Source: Nitrospirota bacterium
GTDB lineage: Bacteria > Nitrospirota > UBA9217
Assembly: GCA_963818475.1 (NCBI GenBank)
Contig: CAWFSF010000002.1
Coordinates: forward strand, 160,001 to 224,000
Direction of reading: 5' to 3'
Length of the DNA stretch: 64,000 nt
Part shown: piece by piece, positions 7,784-36,339 of the stretch
How positions within the stretch are numbered: position 1 is the first letter of the stretch
Layout: the number at the start of each line of letters is the position of its first letter
Notes under the pieces: generated by a model
Told to the model about the DNA's origin: nothing
Database searches by the model: none
What the model saw: only the letters and a program-made list of their open reading frames with translations
Position numbers and translations under genes: made by a program

Positions 7784-9079
7784 TTACCTCTTCATCTCTT
7801 GGTGGCATTGGACGCAAAGGTCCGTACCGAATTGAAAATGCATCAGGCGTTTCTGGTCCGACCCGTGAGACTTGTGGCAGCTCAGGCAATCCAGGGTGAG
7901 GTTTTTATTCCTCGGATCTGTCGCCTTTTCTCCTATCGGGTGTGACGAATGGTGCGTAAAGTCATGGCAGGTGCTGCAGAGATCAATGATCTTCGCCTCC
8001 TTCATCAGGAGGACATTATCGGATGCATGGGGAGAATGGCAGGTCGTGCACATCCCTTCCTGTACAGGATTGTGCTTGGAAAGTGCCTTTTCCTGCCTTG
8101 TGATCGTGTCCTTGTGGCAACTGCCACAGAGGCTCGTCATCGAGTCCTGTTTCAGGAGGGCCGCCCGCTTTGAGGCATGAGGGCTATGACAGTTCAGGCA
8201 GCCCCGATGATCGATCAGGGGCCAATGAATCCGGTTTTTGGACAATGCGGCATTGACCATTTCATAGTGGCATCCGCGGCAGAGCTCAAAACCGGTCTTC
8301 TTGGTCTTGAATGGCGTCGATGATGTCGGGTCTTCATGACACTGATTGCACATCTTGTTGGCGACCGGAACGTGAACGGTGTCATAAAGAAGGGCGCTTC
8401 TCATGGAACCGTGGGGATTATGGCACGAAGTGCAGTTGGAATCAGCAACAGGATAATTCTGATGGACCTTCACAAAGAACGGCTTGTCGGTCTGATGGCA
8501 GTCCTTGCAGAGACCAGGAACGTCCTTCTTGAGAAGATGGAGCGCCGTGGCCGACCCATGGGGATTGTGGCAATTCAAACATCCCGAGGTCACCGGCTTA
8601 TGCTTGCGTTTCGCCTTATCGAGGGAGTCACCCAGTTCCTTGTGGCAATCCAGGCAGAGTTTGTTGCCGGAAAGCTTAAGATTGAACTTGTTGGCCGCTG
8701 CATGGGGATCATGGCATTTGACGCAATTGCCCTCTGTAACGACCTTGTGGCTGCTCTTCGCCTTATCAGGGATCACCGACGCATGGCACGTGCTGCATAT
8801 CGCGCCGGTATCGGTCGCAAGAAGTTTGCCGTGTGAAGACGTATGCGGGCTGTGGCATCCGATACATTCTCCCTGCCTGAGCGGAGTATGCACAAATGTG
8901 TTTTTCAGCTTTTCGGAGAACGTCGAGTGACAGCCGAGGCAGATTTTACCCTCTGCTCCAGGCTTCAGCCTGAACTTGTTCTGCGCATCTGAGCGGTCAA
9001 CGGCGATCGTGAGAAAACAGGTGCTGATCAGCACGGTCAAACAGATCCAGAATTTCATATATGACATTATCCTTTTCAT
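7784..9079 (-). CDS. 16-heme periplasmic cytochrome c (paired CXXCH repeats)
   Basis: 16 CXXCH motifs counted; signal peptide; ATGA overlap with the upstream gene at 9076-9079. Confidence 0.93.
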   Translation of the reverse strand: MKRIMSYMKFWICLTVLISTCFLTIAVDRSDAQNKFRLKPGAEGKICLGCHSTFSEKLKNTFVHTPLRQGECIGCHSPHTSSHGKLLATDTGAICSTCHASVIPDKAKSSHKVVTEGNCVKCHDPHAAANKFNLKLSGNKLCLDCHKELGDSLDKAKRKHKPVTSGCLNCHNPHGSATALHLLKKDVPGLCKDCHQTDKPFFVKVHQNYPVADSNCTSCHNPHGSMRSALLYDTVHVPVANKMCNQCHEDPTSSTPFKTKKTGFELCRGCHYEMVNAALSKNRIHWPLIDHRGCLNCHSPHASKRAALLKQDSMTSLCGSCHKDTITRQEKALSKHNPVQEGMCTTCHSPHASDNVLLMKEAKIIDLCSTCHDFTHHSSHPIGEKATDPRNKNLTLDCLSCHKSHGSDQKRLMHFQFGTDLCVQCHQEMKR

Positions 9080-16000: not shown

Positions 16001-19000
16001 ATGATCCTTATATTGATAGTCTTAAATGTCTCGCCTGGGTTAAAGACCACAACGCCGTTCTTCAGCGTGTAATCCCTGTCGCTTGCAGCGCTGCCTCCCG
16101 TGACCGCGTACTCGACCGCGACTTTCTTCCTGCTGGCCAAGCTCAACGAGAGGGATATCTTTGCAGGGTTTTTTCTCTCATAACCTTCAGATCCCGCCAT
16201 GGAGAAGTTTACCGCAGGTTCAGGTTCTTCCATTAAATTTACGTTCGATGGGGTGTTGGTCTTTTTTGCAATCACCCTGTGGCGATGCACAATAAGGCTG
16301 CCCAGGACCGCGTTGACAGGGTTCGAGAGCGTTACCTCGATGGTCCTGTCATTGCCGTACATCCTGTCATCGAAGCCCCCGATGTCGATGACCTTGGACC
16401 TCTCCCCGGGGTCGAAGACAAGCATGCCTTTTTTCAGGGTATCGTCCCGGCCGTTTGCTGCAGTGCCGCCGCCCCTGACCGCATACTCCACCGTGGACCT
16501 CCTGCCGCTCGCCGCGCTCAACGACACTTCGATCTTCGCAGATCTCGCGCCTTCATCTTCTGTGGAGTCCTTCAAGCCAAAGCCGACGGCAGGCGGAGGA
16601 TCGCTTTCTACAACGGTCACCCGGTGCACGGCGCGCGCGCCCGGCGTCGCATTTACCGCCGTCCCTATCGACACCGATATCACGTTGTTATTTTCGTACA
16701 GCTTATTATCTACGAGAACTACGGTGATAATGCCGGTCCTTTCCCCGGCCCTGATGATCAAGGGGTTCGGGGTGCTGACCCGATAGTTCTTCCCGTCAAC
16801 CGCTGTCCCGCTCACGGTAAAGGGCACGAGCACGTCCTTCCCTGAGATTGCAGAGAGCTTTACGGTTACGGCCACCTCTCCGCTGTCCTCTCTGACCTCC
16901 TGTGCCTGCAAAGCGAAGGTCACGGATGGGGTCGGGTCGTTCTCGACAATGGTATAGGTATGGACCGTCTGTTTGCCCAGGACCGCGTTGACCGGGTTCG
17001 CGAGCGTCACTTCGATCGTCTCGCTGTCTTCGTGGAGATTGTCATCAATGATCCCGATGTCGATGTTCTTGGCAGTCTCGCCGGGCTTGAAGTCGAGCGT
17101 GCCGTTTTTCAGGGCATAATCCCTGCCGCTTACAGCCGTGCCGCCCGTGACCGCGTACTCCACCCTGATATTTTTACTGCTCACTGTGCTTAACGATGCG
17201 GTAAGACGAGCGCGCCCAACCGATTCCTTTCCACGGGAAACGGTTGCAGCAAACGAAACGGCAGGGGGGACGTCGTTTTCAATAATGGTATAGGTATGGA
17301 CCGACTGTTTGCCAAGGACCGTGTTAACAGGGTTCGCCAGCGTCACTTCGATGGTCTCGCTGTCTTCGTGGAGGTTGTCGTCGATGATCCCGAGGTCGAT
17401 GCTCTTGGCAGTCTCACCGGGCTCGAAGAGCGAGCGTGCCGTTTCTTTGGGCATAGTCGCTGCTGTTCGCTGCGGTGCCGCCCGTTACCGCATACTGTAC
17501 CGTGGTCCTTCTGCCGACTACTGAGCTCAGCGCGACGTCGAGCCTCGCAGGTGTTACACCTTCATCTCCACCGGATTCCTTCATCGAGAAGGCTACAACG
17601 GGAGGCGGACTGCTCTCAAAAATGGTCAGGCGGTGCACCGGGCGTTCGCCCAAAGCTGCATTTTCCGGTTTCCCCAGGGCCACGACGGTCGTCTTGCTGT
17701 CTTCGTAGAGGTTGTTGTCCAGCAGGGCAAGGGTGATGCCGGCCGTGGTCGCGCCTGCCTTGATGGTCACGGGGTTCGGGGTCATGACCCGGTAGTGCTT
17801 CCCGTCAACAGCGGTCCCGCTCACGGTAAAGGGCACGATCACGTCCTTGCCCGATGCGCTGGAGAGCTGCATGGTCACGGTTGCCGACCCGTCGTTCTCC
17901 TGCACGTCCTGTCCCGCCGAGGTGAAGGTGATCGCAGGCGCGGGGTCGTTGTCGATGATCGTATAGGTATGGACCGTCTGTTTGCCCAGGACGGCGTTGA
18001 CGGGGTTTACGAGCGTCGCTTCGATGGTCTCGCTGTCTTCGTGGAGGTTGTCGTCGATGATCCCGAGGTCGATGCTCTTGGCAGTCTCACCGGGCTCGAA
18101 AGCGAGGGTGGTGGTTTTCAGGGTATGGTCCCTGCCGGTCTCTGCCGTGCCGCCGGTGACGGCGTATTCCACGGTCGCTGGTTTGCCGCTGGCCGCGCTT
18201 AATGATACTTCGATCTTCGCAGGGCTCTTTCCTTCAGCTTCCTGGGAGCCCTGCAGCATAAAGGAGACAAGGGGCGCCGGGTCGTTGTCCGTGACGGTTA
18301 CGGTATGGACCGGGCGTTCTCCCAACGCTGCATTTTCCGGTTTCCCCAGGGCCACGACGGTCGTCTTGCTGTCTTCGTAGAGGTTGTTGTCCAGCAGGGC
18401 AAGGGTGATGCCGGCCGTGGTCGCGCCTGCCTTGATGGTCACGGGGTTCGGGGTCATGACCCGGTAGTGCTTCCCGTCAACAGCGGTCCCGCTCACGGTA
18501 AAGGGCACGATCACGTCCTTGCCCGATGCGCTGGAGAGCTGCATGGTCACGGTTGCCGACCCGTCGTTCTCCTGCACGTCCTGTCCCGCCGAGGTGAAGG
18601 TGATCGCAGGCGCGGGGTCGTTGTCGATGATCGTATAGGTATGGACCGTCTGTTTGCCCAGGACGGCGTTGACGGGGTTTACGAGCGTCGCTTCGATGGT
18701 CTCGCTGTCTTCGTGGAGGTTGTCGTCGATGATCCCGAGGTCGATGCTCTTGGCAGTCTCACCGGGCTCGAAAGCGAGGGTGGTGGTTTTCAGGGTATGG
18801 TCCCTGCCGGTCTCTGCCGTGCCGCCGGTGACGGCGTATTCCACGGTCGTTGGTTTGCCGCTGGCCGCGCTTAATGATACTTCGATCTTCGCAGGGCTCT
18901 TTCCTTCAGCTTCCTGGGAGTCCTGCAGCATGAAGGAGACAAGGGGCGCCGGGTCGTTGTCCGTGACGGTTACGGTATGGACCGGGCGTTCGCCCAAAGC

Positions 19001-20950
19001 TGCATTTTCCGGTTTCCCCAGGGCCACGACGGTCGTCTTGCTGTCTTCGTAGAGGTTGTTGTCCAGCAGGGCAAGGGTGATGCCGGCCGTGGTCGCGCCT
19101 GCCTTGATGGTCACGGGGTTCGGGGTCATGACCCGGTAGTGCTTCCCGTCAACAGCGGTCCCGCTCACGGTAAAGGGCACGATCACGTCCTTGCCCGATG
19201 CGCTGGAGAGCTGCATGGTCACGGTTGCCGACCCGCCGTTCTCCTGCACGTCCTGTCCCGCCGAGGTGAAGGTGATCGTGGGCGCGGGGTCGTTGTCGAT
19301 GATCGTATAGGTATGGACCGTCTGTTTGCCCAGGACGGCGTTGACGGGGTTTACGAGCGTCGCTTCGATGGTCTCGCTGTCTTCGTGGAGGTTGTCGTCG
19401 ATGATCCCGAGGTCGATGCTCTTGGCAGTCTCACCGGGCTCGAAAGCGAGGGTGGTGGTTTTCAGGGTATGGTCCCTGCCGGTCTCTGCCGTGCCGCCGG
19501 TGACGGCGTATTCCACGGTCGCTGGTTTGCCGCTGGCCGCGCTTAATGATACTTCGATCTTCGCAGGGCTCTTTCCTTCAGCTTCCTGGGAGCCCTGCAG
19601 CACGAAGGAGACAAGGGGCGCCGGGTCGTTGTCCGTGACGGTTACGGTATGGACCGGGCGTTCGCCCAAAGCTGCATTTTCCGGTTTCCCCAGGGTCACG
19701 ACCGCTGTTTCTGTGTTCTCGGAGAGATGATCGTCCTTCGGCTTGATAATGATCGTTCCGCTTGTTTCGCCTGCCTTGATGAAGAGCGGGGCCGGCGTGA
19801 TGCTGTAATCGGCACCTTCTTGCGCGGTCCCGCTCACGGTAAAGGGCACGACCACGTCCTTGCCCGATGCGCTGGAGAGCTGCATGGTCACTGTTGCCGA
19901 CCCGCCGTTCTCCTGCACGTCCTGTCCCGCCGAGGTGAAGGTGATCGCGGGCGCGGGGTCGTTGTCGGTGATCGTATAAGTATGGACCGTCTGTTTGCCC
20001 AGGACGGCGTTGACGGGTTTCGAGAGCGTCACCGCAATGGTCCTGTCGCCGCGGTAGAGCTTATCATCGAGGACCCTGATATCGATTTCTTTGGATAACT
20101 CCCCTGGCCCAAAGATCAGGGTGCCGCTTTTCAGGCTATAGTCCCTGCCGGTCTCTGCCGTGCCGCCGGTGACGGCGTATTCCACCGTTACCTTCCTCGG
20201 ACTGGGCGCGCTCAGCGATACATCGATCTTTGCGGGGGACACGCTTTCCTCCCTGCCCAACCTCCGCAACGCAAAATTAACGACAACTTCCCGAAAGCCG
20301 ACTCCGGTCACCGTTGAAACATAGTCGGCCTTGGGTTTGAATTTTCCGTTGTTCTCGTCATAATCTCTCTCGCGGCCGGAGACGAAGCCCGCCAGAGAAC
20401 CTGCAAGCGCGGCCGTAGCCCTGTCAAGAAGGACTTTCTGATCTTCGATCAGGCCAAGGCCGAGAAGACCCGGCGCATCATCGCCGGCCGAGCCGATGCT
20501 GTCAATCCATACAATTTCGGGGCGCTCTCCGGTTGAGACCAGACGCGCTGAGAGGGCGATCTGCGGAGGGTTGTTGTCGTGGTAAAGTTCGAGAGAGGTA
20601 ATGAGCACACCGGCAACTCCGGCCTCCTCCTTGAACGCGCGGGCCATGTCACTGTTGAGTCCGCCGGTATCGCGCATTCTCCGCCGTTCCATGAACTGCG
20701 CAAGCCCGTCCTCTTCCAGGAGATCGAAGCCCTGGCCCTTCAGTTTTTCCGAGAATGACCGCGCTATTTCATCAAGCGGCGCAGGCGAACTGCTGCGGTT
20801 TTCAATGGGCAAAAGCGCAATCCGGCCTAGCCGGTGGAAACCGGTATCACTTGTCAGCCGCCCGTTCACGGACGCGCACCCCGCAAGAAGCGCCAGACCC
20901 GCACAGAGGACCGTGAGGTGCTTATGCAATGTCTTTCCTGAAAGGTTCAT
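13075..20950 (-). CDS. Giant lipoprotein (~2,620 aa): N-terminal CsgG/GNA1162-like domain, ~20 Calx-beta domains, C-terminal CsgG/GNA1162-like domain; split by one frameshift near 17430
   Basis: Lipobox LLAG-C. Repeats VEYAVTGGTA..LAFEPGETAKSIDLGIIDDNLHEDSETIE..TIIDND. ORFs 17414..20950 and 13075..17454 join in mid-domain when one base is removed from ACGCTCGCTCTTCGAGCCC. Terminal domains begin IALLPIENRS and IAIMPFTNST. Confidence 0.85.
13668..15955. repeat. Near-identical 672-bp tandem repeats (two Calx-beta domains each), block 2
   Basis: Same sequence recurs at a 672-bp period with few substitutions; boundaries approximate. Confidence 0.9.
17637..20030. repeat. Near-identical 672-bp tandem repeats, block 1
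   Basis: Antisense ORFs recur at 17633, 18305, 18977 and 19649; the QEGADY-type unit is shared with block 2 at a 4069-bp offset. Confidence 0.9.
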
Positions 20951-21315
20951 GGCTTTTTCTGTAACGCCCGCCTGTCTCTTTGCTCGTCAAATTATAGGGC
21001 AGCTGCCTGCATGGCCGGAACAGCCTGCGAATCCGTCATTGTCAGGGAAAGGACCTTGTCGGGTGCGTGCTTTGGGGGGTGGCGAAATGTCCCCGGAAAG
21101 AGGATGATTTCACCTTGTCTGCAGCATGTTGTCCGAATAGTCATGCGTGCCGAATCCTGCGGAAACAAAATACGGGCGGCATTTCCCTGCCGCTTCTCTG
21201 GAACAACGGCAAGCTCTTTCCTCGACACGGGAAGGGTCCTTTTCCGCTGTTGACCTTCCCTCAGCAGGCCGGGAAGAGCGTCCGCTAACGGAGAACAGGA
21301 CCGCAGATCGCCTGG

Positions 21316-21894
21316 TCAAAAAAGCTCATTGACCAGCTCTATGACAGCCTCCCGCGTGACATCGTTCATCGGCCGTCCCCCGCCGCCCAGGAGACGGTCC
21401 CCGGCGGTTATGCCGCCCCGCGTGGAAGATGCGGTCCATACCACCCTGCCCGTCTGGGCCTCGATCATCTGAAGACTGAGGGAGATGACATTGGAAGACG
21501 TCGTCCCTGACCGGACCTCTCCATATTCCCTGAGCACGCCCGTGATAACGGCATCGGCCTTGACAATGCCCCCCAGTTTGGTGATCTCTTCCGCAGAGGG
21601 TACGGTCGCTTTCTCGATCCCTGCCCGTGTAATGCCTCGCGCAACCTCTCCAGCAGGGAGCACGTAGATGGCGCCTGTCGACAGAAGCATGTTCATGAAG
21701 ACGTCCCTTACCCTGTTTGCAGCCTGATTGTCTTTCGTGAGGTTCTCAAAAGGCATTACCGCAACGGTCCGCACCGACCCGAGGTCGAAATTCGGGTCAT
21801 GGTAAACCGAGCGTTTGGAGGAGGCAGCACAGGCCGGCAGGGAAATCAGAACAAGTGAAAGCAGGACCGTTATGAGATTTTTAATCACGTTCAT
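21316..21894 (-). CDS. GNA1162/CsgG-like lipoprotein
   Basis: Lipobox LPA-C, VAVMPFENLT, ADAVITG, MIEAQTGRVVW. Confidence 0.8.
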   Translation of the reverse strand: MNVIKNLITVLLSLVLISLPACAASSKRSVYHDPNFDLGSVRTVAVMPFENLTKDNQAANRVRDVFMNMLLSTGAIYVLPAGEVARGITRAGIEKATVPSAEEITKLGGIVKADAVITGVLREYGEVRSGTTSSNVISLSLQMIEAQTGRVVWTASSTRGGITAGDRLLGGGGRPMNDVTREAVIELVNELF

Positions 21895-21951
21895 CACCTC
21901 AATGGTATTATTTTTTATTATGACATGCAATAAAAATTCAGGTGGCGGCGA

Positions 21952-24189
21952 TCAAAAAAACACCATCAGGCTTGTACTGAATGCCCTTGCATCTGATTTG
22001 TCAAGATCCGATTCACCATGGGACACCTGATACGATGCCGCGAGATAGGAAGTGCGGCTGAGATTCAATCGAACGGACGGAGTGATGACCCTGGTCATCG
22101 CGTTGTTTTCGGACGCCAGACTCTCATTATACGCTAAAGAGAACTGGAATGCACCGTCGGGGAACGGCGACCAATTGAGCGAATAATTGTGGAACGTCCT
22201 GTCTCTCTCCTGGTCGGTTATCTTGCTCAGCGTAGCAACGAGGTAGAGCGTCCGAAACGGAATATAGGACGCGCTCACCTCTGTTCTCCTGGTAAAGTCC
22301 GATGAGCCCGGCCCGCCCCCTCCCGACCTGTCCGTTTTCGTTGAGGAAAAAAAATAGCTCAGGTTCAGGTCAGGGTGAGGCATCAGGTTGGAGAGAACGC
22401 TCCAGATCGTGCTTTTCACGTTTTCTCCCGTCTCCCGGTTCTGAAAGCTTTCCCCTCCAGAGACCACAATGTTTATGCCTTTGTAAAGGTCCGCATAATT
22501 GTTCAGGAAGAGGGATTTCGTGTCAGTTCGCCCGCCGTCTCTCTCCTCGTCCCGCCCGCTATAGGTAAGGCTGTGGCGGAGCGTCCGCAGGGGAACCGCC
22601 ATAAGGGAGGCGTTCGTGACATACGCAACACCGTTGCCTGCAGGATCGGAAAAGTCCTCCCGGGCGACTCGCGCGCTTCCTGAAAAAACTTTGCTGAACC
22701 TCTGGCTCACCAAGAGGCCGTTCGAAAGGTTCCATCTCTCCTGGGAAGAAGGCTCTGTCTTTGTGTAAAAATAGGAAAGTTCGTAATTGAGGTTCGGGAT
22801 GTCCAGAAGCTGCGCTCTCCCGTCAAAATTATAGGCATGGATGGTGCTGGTCGTTTCGCCTCTTACTTCCTCGGCGGGCTTTCTCGCAAACGCCTGGAGC
22901 TCCGTCACAAAGATGTCGGGAAACCCTGTTGCTCCCGTCACCACCGGAGACAGGGGTTTCACCACGACCTTTATGTATCTCGTCGTCACCGGTGAAAAAG
23001 CGATCTCAAAACGGTTATCAAAAGGCCCGAACTGTGCGGGGAATACGGTTGTGTGAAAATTCCAGACCAGGTTGTCCGAGCTTGTATAAATATCCCAGGA
23101 GAACGAGCTGGCGATTGCAGCCGGGAGCTCCCGGTCCACCCAGACAAAAAGCGTGTTCATCTCCCCCGGGAGAGACAGATCGAGACCGAGGTTCCGTTCC
23201 CTTCCGTCGCCCGTGATGGGCGGAAGCCCGATATTGACCCCCGTGCTTGCTGCCAGGGCGCCGTCTATCAAGGAGGCATTCGGCGTGAGGGCGCCGTCAG
23301 CAGGGGTGTCGTCGATGGATGACAGCCCTGAAAAGGGGACCAGCCCAATGTCCACCAACCCCGCCCCGGTGACAGAAGTTTTCATGGTGCTGTGGACAAC
23401 GTTGTAGCTCGTGTTGAACGAGATCCGCTCCTGGGCAATGCGATCGGAGTAATCCACCCTTCCAACCTGGTTCAGCTGCTTCGTTTCAAGGGACGTCAGC
23501 TGGTTTTTGGTGTTTATGTATGACGGCCGGTATCGTATTGCAAGATTGTCCGACGGCACATATTCCGCGGTGAGCCCGATGAAATCCCTGACCATGTCCT
23601 GGTAAGCCCGCTCCTTGTCAAAGAGATGGGTTCTTTCGGCCCGCATCTCGATATGGGGAAAGTCCTCCGGTCTCCAGCCAAGGATGGCGGTGCTGGTCTC
23701 ATTGATATTCGTTATCGAGGGCCCACTGGAGGAAGACGCCGTCTCCTCCCGTCTGAGGTATCTGACGCCGGCCGTGTAGATCGGCGTCCTCAAGGTAAGG
23801 TCAGCGTACGGCTGTATCCTGGTCAAGGTCGATTCTGTTTCCATGCCGTTGGTAGTCGATTCGCTGTCTGTTTTATCAAAAAGGCCGCTCGCAGAGAACC
23901 TGAGATAGGGGTAGAGGGTCCGGGAGAACGTCAGGTTGTAGCGTTGATTGAAGCTGTTGGCTTCCGTCCGGCTGACATTTCCCGAAGCATCTTCGGACCT
24001 GGAGTCCAGATTGCTGTATCCGAAGTTCAGATAACCACTGACCCCTTCCGCCACGACAGCATCGGGGCAGGATACCGCTCCCAGACAAAACAATGCCAGA
24101 AACACAGCGGCAGTGCCGGTTCCCCTGCAGCGGGATACCCACCATCGGCCTCCCTCTTTATCACGAGCGGCTGACAGCACAGAACGCAC
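21952..24189 (-). CDS. Large outer-membrane beta-barrel protein with an inserted discoidin-like beta-sandwich
   Basis: Alternating amphipathic strands, C-terminal Phe; central insert WDIYTSSDNLVW..TRYIKVVV..VTELQAF; start uncertain. Confidence 0.75.
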   Translation of the reverse strand: MRSVLSAARDKEGGRWWVSRCRGTGTAAVFLALFCLGAVSCPDAVVAEGVSGYLNFGYSNLDSRSEDASGNVSRTEANSFNQRYNLTFSRTLYPYLRFSASGLFDKTDSESTTNGMETESTLTRIQPYADLTLRTPIYTAGVRYLRREETASSSSGPSITNINETSTAILGWRPEDFPHIEMRAERTHLFDKERAYQDMVRDFIGLTAEYVPSDNLAIRYRPSYINTKNQLTSLETKQLNQVGRVDYSDRIAQERISFNTSYNVVHSTMKTSVTGAGLVDIGLVPFSGLSSIDDTPADGALTPNASLIDGALAASTGVNIGLPPITGDGRERNLGLDLSLPGEMNTLFVWVDRELPAAIASSFSWDIYTSSDNLVWNFHTTVFPAQFGPFDNRFEIAFSPVTTRYIKVVVKPLSPVVTGATGFPDIFVTELQAFARKPAEEVRGETTSTIHAYNFDGRAQLLDIPNLNYELSYFYTKTEPSSQERWNLSNGLLVSQRFSKVFSGSARVAREDFSDPAGNGVAYVTNASLMAVPLRTLRHSLTYSGRDEERDGGRTDTKSLFLNNYADLYKGINIVVSGGESFQNRETGENVKSTIWSVLSNLMPHPDLNLSYFFSSTKTDRSGGGGPGSSDFTRRTEVSASYIPFRTLYLVATLSKITDQERDRTFHNYSLNWSPFPDGAFQFSLAYNESLASENNAMTRVITPSVRLNLSRTSYLAASYQVSHGESDLDKSDARAFSTSLMVFF

Positions 24190-24194
24190 AAGAC

Positions 24195-25595
24195 CTACCT
24201 CTCTCCCATCAGGGTCACCCAGTACGCGCCTTCGCCGACATCCAGCTCGGCGACCGTTTGGTTGCTGATGATATTGATGCCCAGAAGGGTCTTTTTTCGA
24301 GGCAGGACAAGATACAGGTTATTTTCGTCACCATCGATCGCCATGCAGGAGATGCCCCCTCCTGCCAGGATCGTATCAGTCGGCATTTCCAGTGCCGGCT
24401 CGTATACCGAAACCACAGGGTCATTGCGCTTACCGAGAAAAATACGGTCGGTCCTGGTATCCACCTTGAGAGCGCTCATTGCCGTCCCCGCGGAGATCCG
24501 CTGGAGCGCGGACAGGGTCGTTGTATCGATGACCATAAGGTATGAGGAGAGCGCATGGATGACATAGAGCCGGTCACCCTTCCGGTTCATCTGCCCCCGC
24601 AGCGGCCCCGCATCCGTGGAGATCGTCGCGGATACCTGCCTGGCTGCGAGATCGATGATCGAAATCGTATCGGAGAGGGTATTGAAGACATAGGCCCTCC
24701 TTCCGGCTGGATCGAAGAGGACCGCGTTGGGCGCTTTGCCCACGCTGATCCTCTCCAGCTCGATCAGGGAAACAGGGTCGATGATGCTTACCGTGTCCGA
24801 ACCCTTGTTCGCCGTCAGCAGGAAGCGGCCGTCGGGCGAGAGAGCCGGCTCTTGCGGACGGTCGCCGGTCGAGAGCGGTATCCTGTGCACAATATCGCCT
24901 GCGGCAACATCAATAACATCAACAGCATCATCCCCTGCAAGCGCTACATAGGCCCTCTGCCGTCCCTTGTCAAGGGCGATGCCCCGGGGGCCCATGCCTG
25001 TTGCGATAACGCTTACGACCTGTCCGGACTTTTTGTTGAAGACCGTGATGTTGTTCGACCCGTAATTTGCCACGTATCCCGCAAGGGCCGGGATCGGCTG
25101 GTCGGGATGAACGAGTAAAAAAGACGGGCTGAAACCGGACCGCTCTATTACTGCTTCGGCAGGACGGAACGTTCCTGCTATGACGGAGGACTTGCCCCTT
25201 CGCACCTCAAAGGGGAACCCGGCAAGCAGCGGATTTTCAGGCACGACGAGTGCACTCTCTCCCTCGGCCCCTCTGAAAAAGGGGTTAACGGCACGGAACG
25301 AAAGACCGGTATAGGACCCGGGCGGCAAGGTGCCGGAAGCTACGAGGCGCTGTCTGCTCATCACGCTGATACTGAAATCAGAGACCGCAAGCGAGAGGGG
25401 GAATTCCCTGCCGTCATCCCTCAGGGCAGCGACCTCGCTGAGGCCGAATCTGATCCGCTCCGCCTCTCCGGGAAAGGGCTGGACATAGAGAAAGACCTCG
25501 CCTTCCTCGTCGAGAGGAGGTTTCAGAGAAGCTGAGGTTGCGTAGCATCCGGAAAAAAAGACAACCCCGATAAGAAAAAGACTTATCTTACTCAT
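24195..25595 (-). CDS. YVTN/YncE beta-propeller lipoprotein
   Basis: FSG-C lipobox; YVANYGSNNITVF, ANKGSDTVSIID and NTLSDTISIID repeats. Confidence 0.85.
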   Translation of the reverse strand: MSKISLFLIGVVFFSGCYATSASLKPPLDEEGEVFLYVQPFPGEAERIRFGLSEVAALRDDGREFPLSLAVSDFSISVMSRQRLVASGTLPPGSYTGLSFRAVNPFFRGAEGESALVVPENPLLAGFPFEVRRGKSSVIAGTFRPAEAVIERSGFSPSFLLVHPDQPIPALAGYVANYGSNNITVFNKKSGQVVSVIATGMGPRGIALDKGRQRAYVALAGDDAVDVIDVAAGDIVHRIPLSTGDRPQEPALSPDGRFLLTANKGSDTVSIIDPVSLIELERISVGKAPNAVLFDPAGRRAYVFNTLSDTISIIDLAARQVSATISTDAGPLRGQMNRKGDRLYVIHALSSYLMVIDTTTLSALQRISAGTAMSALKVDTRTDRIFLGKRNDPVVSVYEPALEMPTDTILAGGGISCMAIDGDENNLYLVLPRKKTLLGINIISNQTVAELDVGEGAYWVTLMGER

Positions 25596-25934
25596 TGGAT
25601 TCCTTGCCCCACGGTTCACTTTCGTATCCGCTCCATCCTTCTCAGTGCGTGGATTCGATGAGTAGTATTAACAAGTCCCTCGCCTGCGTGCATTACAAAC
25701 CGTATTAATAGCGATGCGGGTCGTGGCCCCGCACCGCGTTTTTTTCTCTGTAATCTCCCTGTCCGGCTGTTGAATGTTCTTTTCGAACAACCAAAACAGT
25801 GTATCATGCTCCCCGCTGTTTTTATTATTTGTTCGTAGCAATCGTTCAGTCCTCTGCATGAAAAGAACTTTATCGATGAATCCTATACCTGGTCTGAGGC
25901 AAATGGTAGATGAAACGCGCTGTAAATTCAAGAG

Positions 25935-25991: not shown

Positions 25992-27239
25992 TTAGTCTTT
26001 TGCGTGGCACTTGTTGCAGAGAGACCGCTGATAAGAACCGTAATGCATCGTGGTGTCATTGTATGCTTTTGTGGTCTCTGCTACGGTACGGCCTTGTGCG
26101 TACTTCGGCTGGTTGGCAACGAGGCTCGGAGAATCGGTGCCCGGCCATACGCCGTCAACAGCGATGAACTCGCCTGCATTGTTCCACCGACCCATGAATT
26201 CCCATCCGCTTGCATGCGACTTGTGGCAGGAGAGGCACATGACCCGGTCACTCGTTGCAGGTCCTTCCGGTTTGGTGCCGTCGTTCACGGCCAGGGCCTT
26301 AAGAACGGCATAGTCTGTCGTATTGTCGGTCTGGAACGGAGCGAGTGAATCGAATGCAGTTGCGAGCGTTCCTGCCAGGTTGCCGCTGCCAATATATGAG
26401 TTGTAGATGCCCGCAACAGTGGTGCCCAGCGTCTGATTAACCGGGTGGGTCATCTTTGAGCTCGTGCCGGAATGCATATCCGGGTGGCAGGTTGCACACC
26501 AGTCGGTAATCCCGGCTCCATAGGCTACACGGGTAGGAGTTGCTGCCTCTGTTCTGTTATACGTGCTCGGAACAACCGCATTAAATACTGCATTGAAGGT
26601 CTTGCCGCCGGAACCGGCAGAAGAACCCGTTCCGCGAAGGATACGGTATGCGCCGACTGCCTGGCCAGCTAACGGGGTAACACTGTTGTTGTAGGAACCG
26701 GAAGCGATGATCGGGGCGCCGGTAGTGGCAAAGGTCCCGTCAGAAAGCCTTCTCAGTACGCCGTGGTTGTCATGGCAGCTATTGCAGCCGAGCTGTGTTG
26801 CATCCATGTCGCCGCCGGGAGCTACCGTGTTTTTTGCATCAGCGGTATAACCAAAGTCAGCGGCTACGATATTGTGGCCGTGGCCATCGCCAAGGTCAAC
26901 ACTGGTGGTGCCGGTTCTCGGGACATACGTGTAGGTCTTCTTGAGCCAGCCGAAGTCTCCGCCCGGGGTCCTGTTTCCCGGAGGGGTGCCTGCGGGCATA
27001 TCCGCATCAGGAGTGACAATGTGGTAGCTGGATGCGCCTGTTGCGCCGTGGCAACTGATACAGGTGGAGCTGATGTCCGTATTATTCAGAAGGGCAGAGG
27101 TGCTTTTTGCATCGTGAATATTGTGGCAGCCCATGCACTCTGCAACGCCGCCGCTATGGAACGCGAAACTCGTGCTGCTGAGCCCGAAAGAGAAAAGGCC
27201 AACAGCGACAATGATAAGGCTTAATTTGACGATCTTCAT
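25992..27239 (-). CDS. omcS: OmcS-family hexaheme cytochrome c (nanowire subunit)
   Basis: Signal peptide then FHSGGVAECMGCHNIH; six CXXCH; GGDFGWL, GHNIVA, GAYRIL; C-terminal RSLCNKCHAKD, as recalled for Geobacter OmcS. Confidence 0.92.
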   Translation of the reverse strand: MKIVKLSLIIVAVGLFSFGLSSTSFAFHSGGVAECMGCHNIHDAKSTSALLNNTDISSTCISCHGATGASSYHIVTPDADMPAGTPPGNRTPGGDFGWLKKTYTYVPRTGTTSVDLGDGHGHNIVAADFGYTADAKNTVAPGGDMDATQLGCNSCHDNHGVLRRLSDGTFATTGAPIIASGSYNNSVTPLAGQAVGAYRILRGTGSSAGSGGKTFNAVFNAVVPSTYNRTEAATPTRVAYGAGITDWCATCHPDMHSGTSSKMTHPVNQTLGTTVAGIYNSYIGSGNLAGTLATAFDSLAPFQTDNTTDYAVLKALAVNDGTKPEGPATSDRVMCLSCHKSHASGWEFMGRWNNAGEFIAVDGVWPGTDSPSLVANQPKYAQGRTVAETTKAYNDTTMHYGSYQRSLCNKCHAKD

Positions 27240-27259
27240 TCACATCCTCCTAAAATTGG

Positions 27260-27337
27260 CTCCGGCAGACCAGCCATCCCGTTTCCGGGATCTGTGACTT
27301 TGTGCCCCCACCTTGCGGTGAGTTTACCCGTTCGGAG
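27260..27337 (-). ncRNA. GEMM-I (c-di-GMP-I class) riboswitch in the omcS leader
   Basis: CUCCGAACGGGUAAACUCACC-GCAA-GGUGGGGGCACAAAGUCACAGAUCCCG-GAAA-CGGGAUGGCUGGUCUGCCGGAG: GNRA-capped P2, GYAAAC/CAAAG junctions, P3, P1 CUCC/GGAG. Confidence 0.8.
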
Positions 27338-27366
27338 GATCGATTGTTGCCGGCAATGCCGACAGA

Positions 27367-27435
27367 TTTTACTTCTTCTTTCTTACTTCTTACTTCCTAC
27401 TTCTTACTTCTTACTTCCAGCTTCTTACTTCTTAC
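27367..27435. repeat. Heptamer tandem repeat (TTCTTAC)n, ~9-10 imperfect copies
   Basis: Direct reading of the sequence. Confidence 0.9.
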
Positions 27436-27518: not shown

Positions 27519-28460
27519 TCAGTCGTAGGCAATCCGAAAGACGCTGACGCCGCGTCTTCTTGCCTGGTTTACAAAGACCTTGTCATTGAGGACCGCCAGC
27601 CGTTGTGGAGCAGTCAGGTTGTCCCTGGCTTCTCCACGCGAGCCGAACTGCATCTGGAATTTGAATTCCTTGTCGTAAACCATGACAACGCTTTTCAAGG
27701 TGTCTACCACATAGATGAATCCCCTGTCATCGGATGCGATATCTGCCACAATATTGAACTTCCCTGCCACGTTGCCCGCACTGCCGAAGGATTGCACCTG
27801 GTGGTCGCGGGACATTCTGAAGGCCGTAAAGAGCGTTGGGACCGTGAAAAGCATGTTCCCCTCCCTGTCCACGCTGAAGCCGACGATATTGTTCTCCGAA
27901 CCCGTCTTTTCTTCCTTTGCCAGGTAAGCTCCGACATCATAGCCGTCCACAAAAGAACCCGTTGAATCAATGACAACGATCTTCCTTGTATAAAGGTCGG
28001 CAAGATAGAGATATCCCTTCCAAGAGACCAACCGTCGCGGTAAGATCTTCGAAAACTCCTGCGGAAGACCCCTCAGCTCCAGCGCCTCCTTCAATTCTCC
28101 CCGAAAATTGCAGCGCAAAATTGAATAGCTGTCCCCGTTGTGGGAGAGCACCATGATTTTCCCGTCCTGCTCAACAGCGACATCGACAATTGTGCCAAGG
28201 GCGCTGTCGTCGCCGAAATGGTAGATTTCCATCCCAACGTTATTAAATATACTGACGATCCCATCGTTGATGACAAGCACCTCGCTATGCTCTCTGTCGC
28301 TGGACAACCCTGTCCAGCTGTAGGGTATGGCGCCGTTAAAGTCGGAAAGGGTGTAGAGATAGGAAGCCTTGATGTCTGCCGTAGCGATCGTTGAGCAGAG
28401 CAACAGCGAGAGTGCTGTTGCGGTTGCGAGGGATGGCAGGTTTAAATGAAGGTATTTCAT
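27519..28460 (-). CDS. Exported NHL-like beta-propeller protein upstream of omcS
   Basis: Signal peptide; IASDDRGFIYVVD and QFGSRGE repeats. Confidence 0.8.
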   Translation of the reverse strand: MKYLHLNLPSLATATALSLLLCSTIATADIKASYLYTLSDFNGAIPYSWTGLSSDREHSEVLVINDGIVSIFNNVGMEIYHFGDDSALGTIVDVAVEQDGKIMVLSHNGDSYSILRCNFRGELKEALELRGLPQEFSKILPRRLVSWKGYLYLADLYTRKIVVIDSTGSFVDGYDVGAYLAKEEKTGSENNIVGFSVDREGNMLFTVPTLFTAFRMSRDHQVQSFGSAGNVAGKFNIVADIASDDRGFIYVVDTLKSVVMVYDKEFKFQMQFGSRGEARDNLTAPQRLAVLNDKVFVNQARRRGVSVFRIAYD

Positions 28461-28524: not shown

Positions 28525-28540
28525 TGCAATGCCTGTGCCA
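28525..28540 (-). promoter_or_regulatory. Sigma54 promoter for the NHL-omcS transcript
   Basis: Consensus TGGCAC-AGGCA-TTGCA on the minus strand, ~65 bp upstream of the ATG at 28460. Confidence 0.85.
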
Positions 28541-31738: not shown

Positions 31739-32470
31739 ATGAAGAAGGCCTTACTGGTTGTCGATGACGAAAAACTGATACGCTATGCGATGTCCGCCAT
31801 GCTCGGGAGTGAGGACCGGGAGATCGTGTGCGCAGCCACGGGAACGGAAGCACTGCAGGAGCTCGCGGCGCGGTCCTTCGATCTCTGTTTTTTAGATCTC
31901 CATCTGCCCGATATGAGCGGGATCGACATCATGCATGCGGTTGCGAAGACTGCTGCGGGAACAAAGATCGTCATCATGACCGGCGCCGAAGTCGACGAGG
32001 GCACTATGGCGGATATTCGCCGGAACTCCGCATTATTCCTCACCAAGCCCTTTGATCTTGATCGGGTCAAAATGATTATGGAGCAGCTCCTGGTCAGCGA
32101 TAACACCTCATACCGGGACTATGAGTCGTTCGTTCCCGGCCCTGCAGGCGAACGGAAGCGCTTTGAGCGAAGGCGCGTGGACCGCATCGTGATCACCGGT
32201 GCGGCCGTCAGCATCACGGCAGCCTCCCGGACGCGGCTCAGCGCCGATGTCATGGACATCAGCGAAGCAGGTACGCAGGTCCGCACCGATGTTTTCCTCG
32301 AACCCGGCACCAGGGTCCGCGTTGAGGATGGCGCCACCCGGTACAGTGGCATCATCCGGTGGACCGGGAAGGTGGACGATTCAGGCGGCTGCTGTGCCGG
32401 CATTGAGTTCCTGCACGAAACCGGCGGAGGAGACGGCCGCCCCTACTCGAGGCCGAACTTCTTCGTCTGA
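31739..32470 (+). CDS. Response regulator with REC and PilZ domains
   Basis: LVVDDE, FLDLHLPDMSG, TKPFD; then ERKRFERRR and DISEAG. Confidence 0.88.
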   Translation: MKKALLVVDDEKLIRYAMSAMLGSEDREIVCAATGTEALQELAARSFDLCFLDLHLPDMSGIDIMHAVAKTAAGTKIVIMTGAEVDEGTMADIRRNSALFLTKPFDLDRVKMIMEQLLVSDNTSYRDYESFVPGPAGERKRFERRRVDRIVITGAAVSITAASRTRLSADVMDISEAGTQVRTDVFLEPGTRVRVEDGATRYSGIIRWTGKVDDSGGCCAGIEFLHETGGGDGRPYSRPNFFV

Positions 32471-33828
32471 TACCGCAGCGCGTCGTAGCTGATGCCAAGC
32501 AGTTTAGCCGCCTGCGCCTTGTTATGACTCGTGCGAGCGAGCGCCTGGCTGATCAGGTCGCGCTCCACATCGTCGATGCGCACGCCGCACGCCGGCAGCG
32601 CGAACCGCTCGGGGCTTGCTTCGGCCACGGTCGGCCGCGGCCGCATCAACCATTCCGGCAGATGTCCCGGCATTATCTCCTCTTCGCTCTCAAGGACCAC
32701 CAGCCGCTCTACGAGATTTTTGAGCTCCCGGACGTTGCCGGGCCAACCGTAGGAGGCCAGGCTCCGTTCCGCCTCGGGAGAAAAGCGCTTCACTGTTTTC
32801 TTGTTGTACCTTTTACCTAAGCTTTGGAGAAAATTGCGGGCAATGACCGGGATGTCTTCGGCGCGCTCTCGAAGCGGCGGCACGTGCATGTAGAACGTGT
32901 TGAGCCTGAAGAACAGGTCCGTTCGGAATTCGCCCGATGCGACGGCATCGGCAAGGTTCCGGTTCGTCGTGGAGATCACCGTGACATCGACGGGAATTTC
33001 CCTGCTGCCGCCGACAGGCCGAATGGTCCGCTCCTCGAGCACCCGCAGCAGTTTGCCCTGCAGACTCTGCTTCATGTCGCCGATTTCGTCAAGGAGAATC
33101 GTGCCGTTGTGGGCAAGCTCGAAGAGCCCCTTCTTGTCGGTTTTGGCATCGGTGAAAGAGCCCTTTTCGTGCCCGAAGAGCTCGCTCTCGAGCAGTGTTT
33201 CCGGCAGGGCAGCGCAGTTCACCCTGATGAACGGCGCCAGGCCGGGCCCCACATCCCGGTGCATCAAACGGTGGGCATACCGTGCAAAAAGCTCCTTGCC
33301 GGTCCCGCTCTCGCCGGTGATCAGGATGGTCGACACCGATGCATCGGCCAGTTTTTCGATCTTTTTTTTCAGCTCCTGCACGATCCTGGACCCGCCGAGG
33401 ATCTCCCGGTCAAAGAGTTCGGCGTGGACCTTCCTGAGATACACGACCTCCTGCCGCAGCCTCCCCTTCTCGATGATGTTGCGAATGACGATCTTGACCT
33501 CGTCGATATTGAACGGCTTCGTAAGGTAATCGACGGCGCCGATCTTCATGGCCTTTACCGCGGTTTCCGCGGAATCGTCGGCCGTGAGCATCACCACCTG
33601 CGTTTCAAGCTGCTGCTGCATGATGTCCGTGAGGACCTCGATCCCGCTCCGCACGGGAAGCGTGATATCCAGGAGCACCACGTCCGGCGCCCAGGCCCTG
33701 ATTCTGCCCATCACGTCATCGGCGCCTGATGCCGCGCGCACCTCGTACCCCTCCTCCTTCAGCACCCGGGTGAGCATGATGGTGATAAGTTCGTCGTCAT
33801 CGATCAGAAATATTTTTGACTGGGCCAT
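32443..33828 (-). CDS. Sigma54-dependent NtrC-family response regulator
   Basis: REC domain, GESGTGKE, GSFTDA, LDEIGD, WPGNVRE, Fis-type HTH. Confidence 0.95.
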   Translation of the reverse strand: MAQSKIFLIDDDELITIMLTRVLKEEGYEVRAASGADDVMGRIRAWAPDVVLLDITLPVRSGIEVLTDIMQQQLETQVVMLTADDSAETAVKAMKIGAVDYLTKPFNIDEVKIVIRNIIEKGRLRQEVVYLRKVHAELFDREILGGSRIVQELKKKIEKLADASVSTILITGESGTGKELFARYAHRLMHRDVGPGLAPFIRVNCAALPETLLESELFGHEKGSFTDAKTDKKGLFELAHNGTILLDEIGDMKQSLQGKLLRVLEERTIRPVGGSREIPVDVTVISTTNRNLADAVASGEFRTDLFFRLNTFYMHVPPLRERAEDIPVIARNFLQSLGKRYNKKTVKRFSPEAERSLASYGWPGNVRELKNLVERLVVLESEEEIMPGHLPEWLMRPRPTVAEASPERFALPACGVRIDDVERDLISQALARTSHNKAQAAKLLGISYDALRYQTKKFGLE

Positions 33829-35287
33829 GGGCAAGCACCTCTTTCGGTTCCCTGACGGGAAGCGTAATGAAGAACGAAACTCCGTTGTCGTGGTTATTTT
33901 CAACGCTGATCGTCCCGTTATGCTGTTCGATCAGCTTTTTCGTAATGGCAAGCCCCAGCCCCGTGCCATGCGGTTTGGTCGTAAAGAAGGGCTGGAATAT
34001 CTTGGCGACCACGGCTTCGTCGATCCCGCTGCCCGTGTCGATTATCCAGATCCGGAGGGGTTCACCCGGCCCCGGATCAGCCGTCCGGACGGTGACGGTC
34101 CCGCTGGCGGGCATGGCCTCGGCTGCGTTCAGGAGGAGGTTCATGAACACCTGCTGGAGCTGGAGCGGATCCGCCATGAGCGGCCGCACGTTGGGGGCCA
34201 GCTCGCGCACCACGGTGATGGAATGTCCGTTCTGCGGTGCATACAGCGGGTGTCGCTCGGCGAGGCTGATGGTGGAAGCGATCACGTCGTTCACATCCAC
34301 GGACGAAAAGACCGGTTTCGGCGGCCGCGCGAAATTGAGCATGCTTTTAAGCAGCTGCTCGATACGTTTGGTCTGCTCTACGCCCCTCTTGAGCACGTCA
34401 CGGTTCTCTGCCGTCAGCGACGGATCGCCGGCCAGCACTTCCATCGATGCCTTGATGCCTGCCAGCGGGTTCTTGATCTCGTGGGCCAGCCCGCCCGCCA
34501 TCTCCCCGAGCACCACGAGTTGCTCCGCCCACTGCATGCGAAGACAGTCCTCCCGCAGCGAGTGCGCCATATCGTTGAACGAGGCTGCAACCTCGCCGAA
34601 CTCATCCTGCAGGTGGCCGATCCGATAGCTCAGGTCGCCGTTCTTCAGCTTTCTTGTGGCGGTCAGCAGTTCCTGGACCGGCCTGGTGAATCCCCGGATG
34701 AAAATGGTGGACAGCACGATGGCCGCAAAAGGAACGGCCATGGCAAGGAGGTACAGCATCATCTTGGTGCGCGCTATATCCTGGAATGCCTCCTTCGTCT
34801 GGCTTTCCAGCTTGCTGTTCGCCAGGGTGGTGATGTTTTCAACCTCGGAGATAAGGTCCGTACCAACCCGAAAGGCCCGGTCCTCTTCAGTACGCATCCG
34901 CGCGGCATTCGCCCGCAGCGTGAGCGCCCTGCTCAGTACATTTTTATAATCCTCGACCTGTTTTTTCAGGCCGGTGAGCCTGGCCGTCACCTGTTCATGG
35001 TGATGACAGTCAAAGCACGTCGTGATGCTGCCGCTCATGGTCCGCACATGTTTCACGATCGTATCCATGCTGCGCGCATAAGGGGTGTTCTTCACGTACA
35101 GGTCGGACTGCGCCTGCTTGACCTGTATAAGCAGGTGCTCGCGAAGGATCCCGACCTGGTGGAGCCTGACCAGGCTGTCCATTTCCCTCGTGGCCTGTTC
35201 GATCGTCACGACGGTATAGATGGCGCTCGCGATGAACAGGAGGGAAAAGATGCTCAGTCCTATGATGATTTTCCTTTTCATTGTCAT
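33797..35287 (-). CDS. Sensor histidine kinase with a periplasmic c-heme motif and HAMP domain
   Basis: Two TM helices flank CFDCHH; HAMP (DEFGEVA); AHEIKNPL; GTGLGL. Confidence 0.92.
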   Translation of the reverse strand: MTMKRKIIIGLSIFSLLFIASAIYTVVTIEQATREMDSLVRLHQVGILREHLLIQVKQAQSDLYVKNTPYARSMDTIVKHVRTMSGSITTCFDCHHHEQVTARLTGLKKQVEDYKNVLSRALTLRANAARMRTEEDRAFRVGTDLISEVENITTLANSKLESQTKEAFQDIARTKMMLYLLAMAVPFAAIVLSTIFIRGFTRPVQELLTATRKLKNGDLSYRIGHLQDEFGEVAASFNDMAHSLREDCLRMQWAEQLVVLGEMAGGLAHEIKNPLAGIKASMEVLAGDPSLTAENRDVLKRGVEQTKRIEQLLKSMLNFARPPKPVFSSVDVNDVIASTISLAERHPLYAPQNGHSITVVRELAPNVRPLMADPLQLQQVFMNLLLNAAEAMPASGTVTVRTADPGPGEPLRIWIIDTGSGIDEAVVAKIFQPFFTTKPHGTGLGLAITKKLIEQHNGTISVENNHDNGVSFFITLPVREPKEVLAHGPVKNISDR

Positions 35288-36201
35288 TCATTCATATAAT
35301 GGTAAGTGGCAATATCCAGGCCGGCCTCCCGGGCATACCGGTAGACCGGAGCGTAATCAGCGTTCGTCGTCTCAATGAACTTTTGGGCGCCGAATACGCG
35401 CAATACCGCGCGTCCTTCCGGGTCATGATGCATATTCAGGAGCGCCTCCGTAAGGGCCTTCTTCACGTCATCACCGACGTCCTTCTTCAGGGCAAGTCCG
35501 TTCTCGGGGAACTCCGGCGATCGCTCCAGCACCACGAGGTCGCTCCTGATCGCATTGTTGCCGGCCGCCATACGCTCATAGACCGTGTTTTTCGCGGCCC
35601 CGATATCGGCCCGCCGGTTCAGGACGTCGTTGATCGCATCTTCATGGGTGCCGCTGAAATAGGTCTCCCTGAGATGGGTCCTGAAATCGAGCCCGTGTTT
35701 TTTGAAATAGGCGAGCGGGAGCAGATACCCCGCGGTCGTTGCTTTATCCACAAAGGTGAAGCGTTTTCCCTTCATCTGCCGCACTGACGAGATACCGCTG
35801 TCCCGTCTCGCAAAAATAAGGCCGTAGTAGGTCGACATGCCGTTCAGGTCCACCGGACGGCCGATGACCTCTACACCGAGTTTTTCGTGAGCGAGCGGGT
35901 ATGTAAAGCTGCCGAAGAAGGCGCCGTCGAGGTTTTCGGCGACGAAATTATCGATGATATTGCCGTACCGGGGGAGGATTTTCAGGTTGACGGAAATGCC
36001 GATTTTTTTGGAGAGGTAATTACCAAGCGGCTCGTATCGCTCGATCTGGCGGAACAGGTTGTGCTCGGGAAGGAGGCCGATCTGCATCGTACGTCCCCGT
36101 GCTTCTCCCAAAGGAGGCGCTGTCTCCTGCTTGCTGCACCCCGCCGGGGCCGATAGTACCAGGCAGAGTGCGATTGCTGCATAATGTCGTATATTCTTCA
36201 T
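35284..36201 (-). CDS. PhnD-like substrate-binding lipoprotein coupled to the kinase
   Basis: PAG-C lipobox, FVDKATTAGYLLP, FSGTHE; ATGA overlap with the kinase; no ABC permease adjacent. Confidence 0.85.
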   Translation of the reverse strand: MKNIRHYAAIALCLVLSAPAGCSKQETAPPLGEARGRTMQIGLLPEHNLFRQIERYEPLGNYLSKKIGISVNLKILPRYGNIIDNFVAENLDGAFFGSFTYPLAHEKLGVEVIGRPVDLNGMSTYYGLIFARRDSGISSVRQMKGKRFTFVDKATTAGYLLPLAYFKKHGLDFRTHLRETYFSGTHEDAINDVLNRRADIGAAKNTVYERMAAGNNAIRSDLVVLERSPEFPENGLALKKDVGDDVKKALTEALLNMHHDPEGRAVLRVFGAQKFIETTNADYAPVYRYAREAGLDIATYHYMNE

Positions 36202-36237
36202 AACCAGGTATGCAGACATCGCGAATCGCGACAGGAC

Positions 36238-36339
36238 CAAATCGTAACGCGAGAAGTATGTCCGCTTAGTGAAAAAAGTATCAGGTTACAAATCGTAACG
36301 CGAGAAGTATCAGCTTTAGTGGAAAAAAGTATCAGGTTA
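36238..36339. repeat. Two tandem 51-bp imperfect direct repeats
   Basis: CAAATCGTAACGCGAGAAGTAT...TTAGTG(G)AAAAAAGTATCAGGTTA twice. Confidence 0.85.

Follow-up and report, generated by a model that had tools for sequence, protein, structure and literature searches.

The omcS-family gene in the 64,000-nt stretch of DNA analysed here (the window) is preceded by a class-I c-di-GMP (GEMM-I) aptamer, and on balance we judge it probable, if well short of certain, that this aptamer belongs to a riboswitch which covers the ribosome-binding region of omcS and works as a translational ON switch, with a predicted preference for c-di-GMP. The RNA class and its association with omcS are already known: GEMM elements were linked to omcS in PMC1950547, and the Geobacter omcS riboswitch is reported to respond to both cGAMP and c-di-GMP (PMC6456294). 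The literature searched yielded no description of an anti-Shine-Dalgarno (anti-SD) platform on omcS, of omcS leaders with G at position 20 (G20) or of such leaders from Nitrospirota; some of this may be found in Kellenberger 2015, Nelson 2015 and Ren 2015, and if the omcS platform is already described in the 2015 papers, the gain lies in its breadth and in the G20 form.

The gene itself (25992..27239, minus strand) encodes a 415-aa hexaheme cytochrome with a signal peptide, six CXXCH motifs and full-length similarity to OmcS (PDB 6EF8; E 2e-106 over residues 27-415), and it is the only OmcS homolog found in its own genome. His42, which aligns with OmcS His16, a residue that presumably has an inter-subunit role, is invariant in 29 homologs, and by homology the protein would be expected to form nanowires. 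Its closest named homologs (75-80% identity) are mostly from Nitrospirota, so that the host is likely a member of this phylum, and an origin in Geobacter was rejected on the same grounds. The gene in genome G417 encodes a mature protein identical to 6EF8, and its leader (L277) is therefore the published G. sulfurreducens omcS riboswitch. Upstream of omcS, across a gap of 279 nt, an ORF (27519..28460, minus strand) encodes a 313-aa secreted NHL/beta-propeller-like protein, with a weak NCBIfam NHL match below cut-off; a beta-propeller homolog lies upstream of omcS in 39 of 42 loci, and in G417 too (37% identity). An exact match to the sigma-54-type -24/-12 motif, TGGCAC-N5-TTGCA, at 28525..28540 (minus strand) is the likely promoter of the beta-propeller gene and omcS. 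Matches with at most one mismatch number 5 in the window against 2.25 expected, which is not significant alone; the strict motif recurs 1.19-1.34 kb before omcS in 27 of the 42 loci with enough flank, always accompanied by the beta-propeller gene, and on the opposite strand in 0 of 42. The strict pattern was not found in the G417 locus.

The aptamer (27261..27338, minus strand) is matched by Rfam model RF01051 over model positions 1-87 with 55.3 bits, above the gathering score of 35 (E 4.5e-8), and Rfam matches nothing else in the 64 kb window. This covariance-model result bears out the first-pass annotation, which had read from the letters a GEMM-I aptamer ahead of omcS whose end, with P1, lies 20 nt from the ATG (27239). 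The alignment likewise agrees with its reading of G19-G20-G21-U22, since model positions 10-13 are G, G, G and U and fall at 27329-27326; we take model position 11 to be G20 of Vc2, and the numbers G14/C93, 21/46 and 22/45 likewise to be those of Vc2. The pairs G21-C46 and U22-A45 are both present (C46 at 27302, A45 at 27303), and the second, which had been put forward as a covariation, is better described as the common state of the subfamily, found in 51 of the 62 homologous leaders introduced below (C-G in 6, U-G in 5). The P1-P2-P3 three-way junction, the GNRA loop (GCAA) on P2 and the AAA linker of the class are in place, as are the pocket bases G20 (27328), A47 (27301) and C92 (27265), whose roles in ligand binding are described in PMC6140456 and PMC5888326. 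RF01051 is the best-scoring model for the window aptamer; several homologous leaders score slightly higher on RF03167 (c-di-GMP-I-GGC), a model of the same clan whose consensus has G at the place where the window and all 62 leaders have A47. Nor does the window aptamer carry the A20 of the GEMM-Ib class, having G at 27328. Two smaller peculiarities are a linker between G14 and G20 (J1/2) of 4 nt instead of the usual 5, which is 5 nt long in 50 and 4 nt in 7 of the 62 leaders, and a U-U mismatch at one pair of P3. A contig from run X1, which is possibly not independent of the window's source, covers 27153-27391 with no gap and two differing letters; the one change that is listed, at 27318, preserves a P2 pair in the form of U-G, and the list has no entry for G20. 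An assembly error behind the 4-nt linker or G20 was rejected on this ungapped contig and on the recurrence of the linker length in the 7 leaders.

What makes the element a plausible translational switch is the double use of its 5' strand. The sequence AUCCUCC (27334..27340, minus strand) is a perfect 7-bp complement of GGAGGAU (27244..27250), the Shine-Dalgarno (SD) region of omcS, whose GGAGG core ends 6 nt ahead of the ATG. The 3' part of this anti-SD doubles as the 5' strand of P1, where CUCCG pairs over 5 bp with CGGAG (27260..27264), the P1 3' strand and thus the competitor of the SD for the same bases. Within the strand AUCCUCCG, the first seven bases pair with GGAGGAU and the last five with CGGAG, so that both the full complementarity and the alternative closure of P1 claimed at first sight hold in the sequence. 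The exact 7-mer occurs genome-wide at 7e-5 per position, or 3e-3 with G-U pairs allowed. The ligand-free minimum-energy fold of the window leader includes the anti-SD helix with probability 1.00, the SD region being paired with the same probability in the ligand-free ensemble. When ensembles are constrained, the ON state lies 9.1 kcal/mol above the OFF state, at the high end of the 62 leaders (median 6.7, upper quartile 8.1, positive in 60), and between explicit aptamer structures, which leave out tertiary and ligand contacts, the gap is 4.3 kcal/mol. Folding of the growing transcript has P1 23-34% populated for about 10 nt before the SD emerges and lost afterwards, which suggests that ligand would be captured during transcription. 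There is no terminator-like site in the intergenic gap between 27519 and 27239, and transcription attenuation was rejected on this basis; most other GEMM-I copies in the examined loci are followed by a hairpin and U-run, as judged by eye.

The comparative evidence comes from omcS-family loci of 64 same-family genomes, a genome collection and metagenomes, which were scanned with a profile seeded by the Rfam matches. The 208 parsed gene starts reduce to 156 distinct ones with at least 150 nt upstream, and 59 of these have an aptamer whose end lies no more than 40 nt from the start, a share that rises to 23 of 28 among those with at least 60% identity; starts without an aptamer include second genes of tandem pairs and most loci from Acidobacteriota and Rokubacteria. 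Leaving out three cut-off ones among 65 distinct leaders gives the 62 used here, all chosen for an aptamer within 40 nt of the start; alignment A2 holds 60 of them, L044 and L127 being omitted because of a truncated 5' end and a doubtful start. A47 and the G21-C46 pair are kept in 62/62 leaders and C92 in 61/62. The converse search, with a pattern made of this 5' strand and the P2 base, found 26 places in 24 of 401 same-phylum genomes (2 in the reversed control); six are chance occurrences with no aptamer, and the remaining 20 are real aptamers that all stand directly before an omcS-family start, 19 confirmed by blastp and L245, which lacks a long frame, by its matching first codons. The 301 genomes of the phylum of G401 gave 8 pattern matches, 7 of them real and 4 blastp-confirmed before omcS; in the other three an omcS gene is unconfirmed owing to the ORF call or a contig end. 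Within the family of G401, 26 of 69 genomes have OmcS homologs, and among the 30 loci fetched the leader type precedes omcS in G409, G417 and G408.

Over 60 homologs the P1-P3 fold is paired in 97.2% of cells with 71 two-sided changes, 10 of its 24 pairs changing on both sides, and 0 of 500 shuffles reach this level. The OFF (anti-SD) helix is paired in 90.2% over 60 leaders (0/500 shuffles as high; slid controls 42-66%). Some of the paired bases are of no use to P1: the C that stands five bases ahead of G14, conserved in 60 of 62 leaders, pairs with the SD in 59 and could extend P1 in only three. Extension of P1 by the same 5' bases was rejected as the reason for their conservation, being paired in 27.8% of cells, below the shuffles. 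The anti-SD helix has at least 6 bp in 54/62 leaders and at least 7 bp in 48/62, counts that are favoured by the script's choice of the best-pairing SD register for each leader; in ligand-free folding the OFF state has a probability above 0.5 in 53 leaders and the ON state in one; the anti-SD is lost in L068. The outer OFF pair is A-U in 40 of 60 rows, C-G in 6 and broken in 9, with U-A in G417 and G409. Two-sided changes occur in 3 of the 8 OFF-helix pairs, a count that 183 of 500 shuffles match, and a tree-based independent-pairs test of the outer compensatory pair had no power (two independent pairs on well-supported branches, sign test p 1). The core of the OFF helix hardly varies, which is what an SD would lead one to expect. 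Given these few two-sided changes and the powerless tree test, it is the conservation outside P1, more than covariation, that carries the case for the anti-SD. The translational ON switch proposed in the first-pass annotation has thus gained comparative support from conserved anti-SD bases outside P1, from an OFF state that dominates in most leaders and excludes the ligand-bound fold, and from a gap without a terminator.

In the mechanism that we propose, AUCCUCCG would pair with the SD in the OFF state (7 bp) and with CGGAG in the ON state, closing P1 (5 bp), the two helices being mutually exclusive. In the absence of ligand the SD helix would win, by the computed 4.3 kcal/mol for explicit structures or 9.1 for constrained ensembles, and ligand bound between G20, A47 and C92 would lock P1 and leave the SD open. 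Switching would probably be co-transcriptional, since the P1 3' strand is transcribed some 10 nt ahead of the SD. The leader would lie inside a sigma-54-driven mRNA that carries the beta-propeller gene and then omcS; a switch placed inside such an operon mRNA would tune the OmcS protein without stopping transcription, which fits translational control. The element would be the G20 form of the one that precedes G. sulfurreducens omcS, which has A20 and on which both ligands are reported to act, and in a cell that likely makes both signals G20 would limit OmcS synthesis to c-di-GMP.

The prediction of ligand preference depends on position 20, where 47 of the 62 leaders have G and the other 15 A. 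Outside this set, C is found in L258 and L288, two further omcS leaders of this type, and L258 also has a very short J1/2, a combination for which changed or lost ligand specificity is possible. In Vc2, which carries G20, cGAMP is reported to bind at 10 uM and c-di-GMP at pM, and the G20A mutant is bispecific (120 and 53 nM), with P1 composition also able to shift specificity (PMC6140456); by analogy, the G form would be c-di-GMP-selective and the A form bispecific. Because the pocket of the window aptamer is Vc2-like and G20 of Vc2 discriminates against cGAMP, a predicted preference for c-di-GMP is reasonable here. The contrast of c-di-GMP with cGAMP drawn at first has to be replaced, given the A20 of the Geobacter omcS riboswitch and the reported response of that riboswitch to both: the contrast is between c-di-GMP only and both ligands. 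Setting G20 against a Geobacter background was likewise misplaced, the host likely not being Geobacter and G20 being the usual state of the omcS subfamily. On a quick OmcS protein tree, in which 16 of 59 inner branches are weakly supported, position 20 changes 10 times, against 13.7 with shuffled labels (4/500 as low). The leader need not follow the protein, since the syntenic leader L035 is 89% identical to that of the window and has A20, and its protein is only 65% identical. The genome of L035 (G047) carries both A20 and G20 leaders on neighbouring omcS paralogs. The cluster there (L194, G047:C1:1165000-1182000) holds three omcS-like genes; a G20 leader (12294-12373) precedes the first of them and an A20 leader (8753-8830) the second, which lies behind the beta-propeller gene, and the 3' end of the second gene appears frameshifted in the assembly.

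The same data bear on the possibility that the translational ON switch is as described and yet binds both ligands, or even favours cGAMP, despite G20, flips between G and A being near neutral. The roughly ten changes on the tree, with no obvious barrier, suggest that they carry a low cost, L035 keeps A20 on a leader so close to that of the window, and the equivalents of G20 are described as a selectivity factor and no hard filter (PMC9262584); the genome, moreover, combines four A20 aptamers with a Ser/GGDDY enzyme that resembles GSU1937. We nevertheless consider dual binding unlikely here, because the pocket is Vc2-like wherever checked, wild-type Vc2 is reported to separate the two ligands as widely as 10 uM from pM (PMC6140456), and position 20 is restricted to G or A in all 62 leaders, with C in just two others.

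The signals available to the cell are relevant to the c-di-GMP-preferring reading as well. The window's own genome has 8 GEMM-I aptamers, read as four with G20 and four with A20. In three of the latter (L004, L006, L007) the P2-P3 linker reads AGA in place of AAA, and P3 carries long insertions; the fourth, L008, belongs to the classic GEMM-Ib type with A20-C21-U22, and a terminator-like hairpin comes after it. The Hypr serine occurs in two of the genome's 27 GGDEF matches. One of these, a Ser/GGEEF protein, was rejected as a Hypr enzyme, as the combination of Ser and GGEEF is reported to be inactive and the protein is therefore predicted inactive. The other, a Ser/GGDDY HAMP protein (L191:707-2110), is a candidate cGAMP synthase on sequence grounds: its best match in G417 (41% identical, E 1.5e-89) lies between the published GSU1937 primer sites and has Ser and GGDDF, and GSU1937 is reported to make cGAMP (PMC8835794). 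Ser with GGDD(F/Y) is present in 28 of the 30 fetched family loci. The protein forms with L192:394-1776 a GSU1937-like HAMP-GGDD(F/Y) pair, one member with the Hypr serine and the other with asparagine; 59 of the 64 family genomes have matches to it, which suggests that this family, likely of Nitrospirota, uses cGAMP signalling throughout. No Ser/GGDEF protein of the GacA type was found among the 27 GGDEF matches, and neither SMODS/CD-NTase nor CsrA genes were found in the genome, which is 91% complete. The cell thus likely makes both c-di-GMP and cGAMP, as judged from these genes. That G20 is owed to a cell without cGAMP is not supported, in view of the four A20 aptamers and the GSU1937-like gene, which together suggest that G20 is here likely a choice between available signals.

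The window element can be compared with several known systems. It resembles G. sulfurreducens omcS (GSU2504) in gene family, in the upstream beta-propeller neighbour and in a site just before the start, and the L277 leader shares the CUCCG/CGGAG P1, G21-C46 and U22-A45 and has an 8-bp anti-SD helix in its predicted ligand-free fold; that leader differs in having A20, a 5-nt linker and U-A as its outer pair (A-U in the window), and its expression platform is not described in the papers searched. With Vc2 and Vc1 of Vibrio cholerae the window aptamer shares the pocket of G20, A47 and C92 and the use of P1 as the switching helix. Vc1 is reported to be an ON switch (bioRxiv 10.1101/617340), whereas Vc2 is described as an OFF switch by which a distant RBS is masked and RNA stability controlled (PMC9262584, bioRxiv 10.1101/617340); unlike in Vc2, the anti-SD of the window aptamer is its own P1 5' strand, and ligand would free the SD. 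The GEMM-Ib elements (Gs1761/pgcA, Gm0970, pilM) are similar in fold, in being ON switches and in their electron-transfer or surface genes, but are reported to have A20, roughly 1000-fold selectivity for cGAMP and terminators, where the window has G20 and no terminator. Two omcS-like genes of Geobacteraceae (L275, L276) carry a different A20 aptamer 177-185 nt upstream with hairpins after it, which is probably a transcriptional platform on the same gene family.

The precedent of Vc2, which governs the stability of upstream RNA (bioRxiv 10.1101/617340), raises the alternative that the window aptamer acts mainly on RNA processing or stability, of a processed omcS message or of the upstream RNA, with SD masking secondary. 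In G. sulfurreducens, omcST mRNA is reported to be 2-3 fold lower in a gacA mutant, the smallest effect among the cGAMP-mutant responses (PMC6456294), and omcS is reported to be transcribed both on its own and as part of an operon (PMC10599522), either of which could be accommodated in this way. A 7-bp hairpin lies directly 5' of the switch (27348..27364, minus strand), and a GC-rich hairpin is found there in 27 of 60 leaders by a loose pattern, one of them mis-sliced. A mainly RNA-level role leaves unaccounted for, however, that the conserved bases beyond P1 match the SD and that C92 stands 21-39 nt from the start codon in 62/62 leaders (selected for 40 nt or less), and a modest drop in mRNA is also an expected side effect of blocked translation; we regard such a role as improbable.

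Finally, the window copy might be weakened or locked OFF and so fail to switch at the ligand levels of the cell, in which case expression would need another factor. Its linker is one base shorter than in 50/62 homologs, its ensemble gap exceeds the upper quartile of the leaders, and one P3 pair is mismatched; against this, the 4-nt linkers of the 7 leaders lie on separate branches, with an identical linker sequence in two, the explicit-structure gap is a mere 4.3 kcal/mol with tertiary and ligand contacts omitted, the pocket bases and the gene are all intact, and no CsrA gene was found in the 91%-complete genome, which makes a defective or locked copy very unlikely.

A wider reading can be put forward more tentatively, as a possibility somewhat short of an even chance: that omcS-family genes of several phyla carry a dedicated GEMM-I subfamily, a compact translational switch in which the P1 strand is the anti-SD, that position 20, flipped about ten times, sets the response of nanowire synthesis to c-di-GMP alone (G) or to cGAMP too (A), differently in two neighbouring paralogs of G047, and that this switch accounts for the so far unexplained control of OmcS after transcription in G. 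sulfurreducens. OmcS is a main cytochrome nanowire, and its riboswitch is odd within the Geobacter cGAMP regulon, being reported as bispecific and with the weakest mRNA response (PMC6456294). In a gsu1771 mutant the OmcS protein is reported to rise with its mRNA unchanged, and an unknown post-transcriptional control is invoked (PMC10599522). Both the small omcST mRNA response and the change of protein without a change of mRNA fit translational control, and the conserved anti-SD platform would, if the wider reading is true, explain them; RNA-seq would then underestimate second-messenger control of nanowires. The G20 and A20 leaders would add Nitrospirota and other uncultured groups to those in which cyclic dinucleotides control electron transfer, and natural G20/A20 pairs on nearly the same scaffold, such as the 89% identical leaders, offer a clean test of how ligand choice evolves.

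Several further features of the locus deserve mention. The intergenic leader contains an imperfect 7-nt tandem repeat (TTACTTC x 9.6, 27369..27435, Tandem Repeats Finder); strict arrays of this heptamer number only two genome-wide, and related units occur in a minority of homolog leaders. Downstream of omcS, a cluster at 17414-25619 (minus strand) encodes a YVTN-type beta-propeller protein, a 745-aa protein with no Pfam or NCBIfam match, a GNA1162-like lipoprotein and a 1178-aa repeat protein with matches to the NCBIfam models caca and SVAGG that fall short of the cut-off; in G047, too, similar genes lie downstream of omcS, and these proteins are possibly secretion or anchoring partners of the wire. 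Some 4-8 kb upstream (32443-36240, minus strand) are genes for a sigma-54 response regulator, a HAMP histidine kinase and a phosphonate-type periplasmic binding protein, and the regulator and kinase are a candidate activator of the sigma-54 motif; in G. sulfurreducens, a sigma-54 regulator and kinase (GSU2506-2507) are reported to adjoin GSU2505 (PMC10599522).
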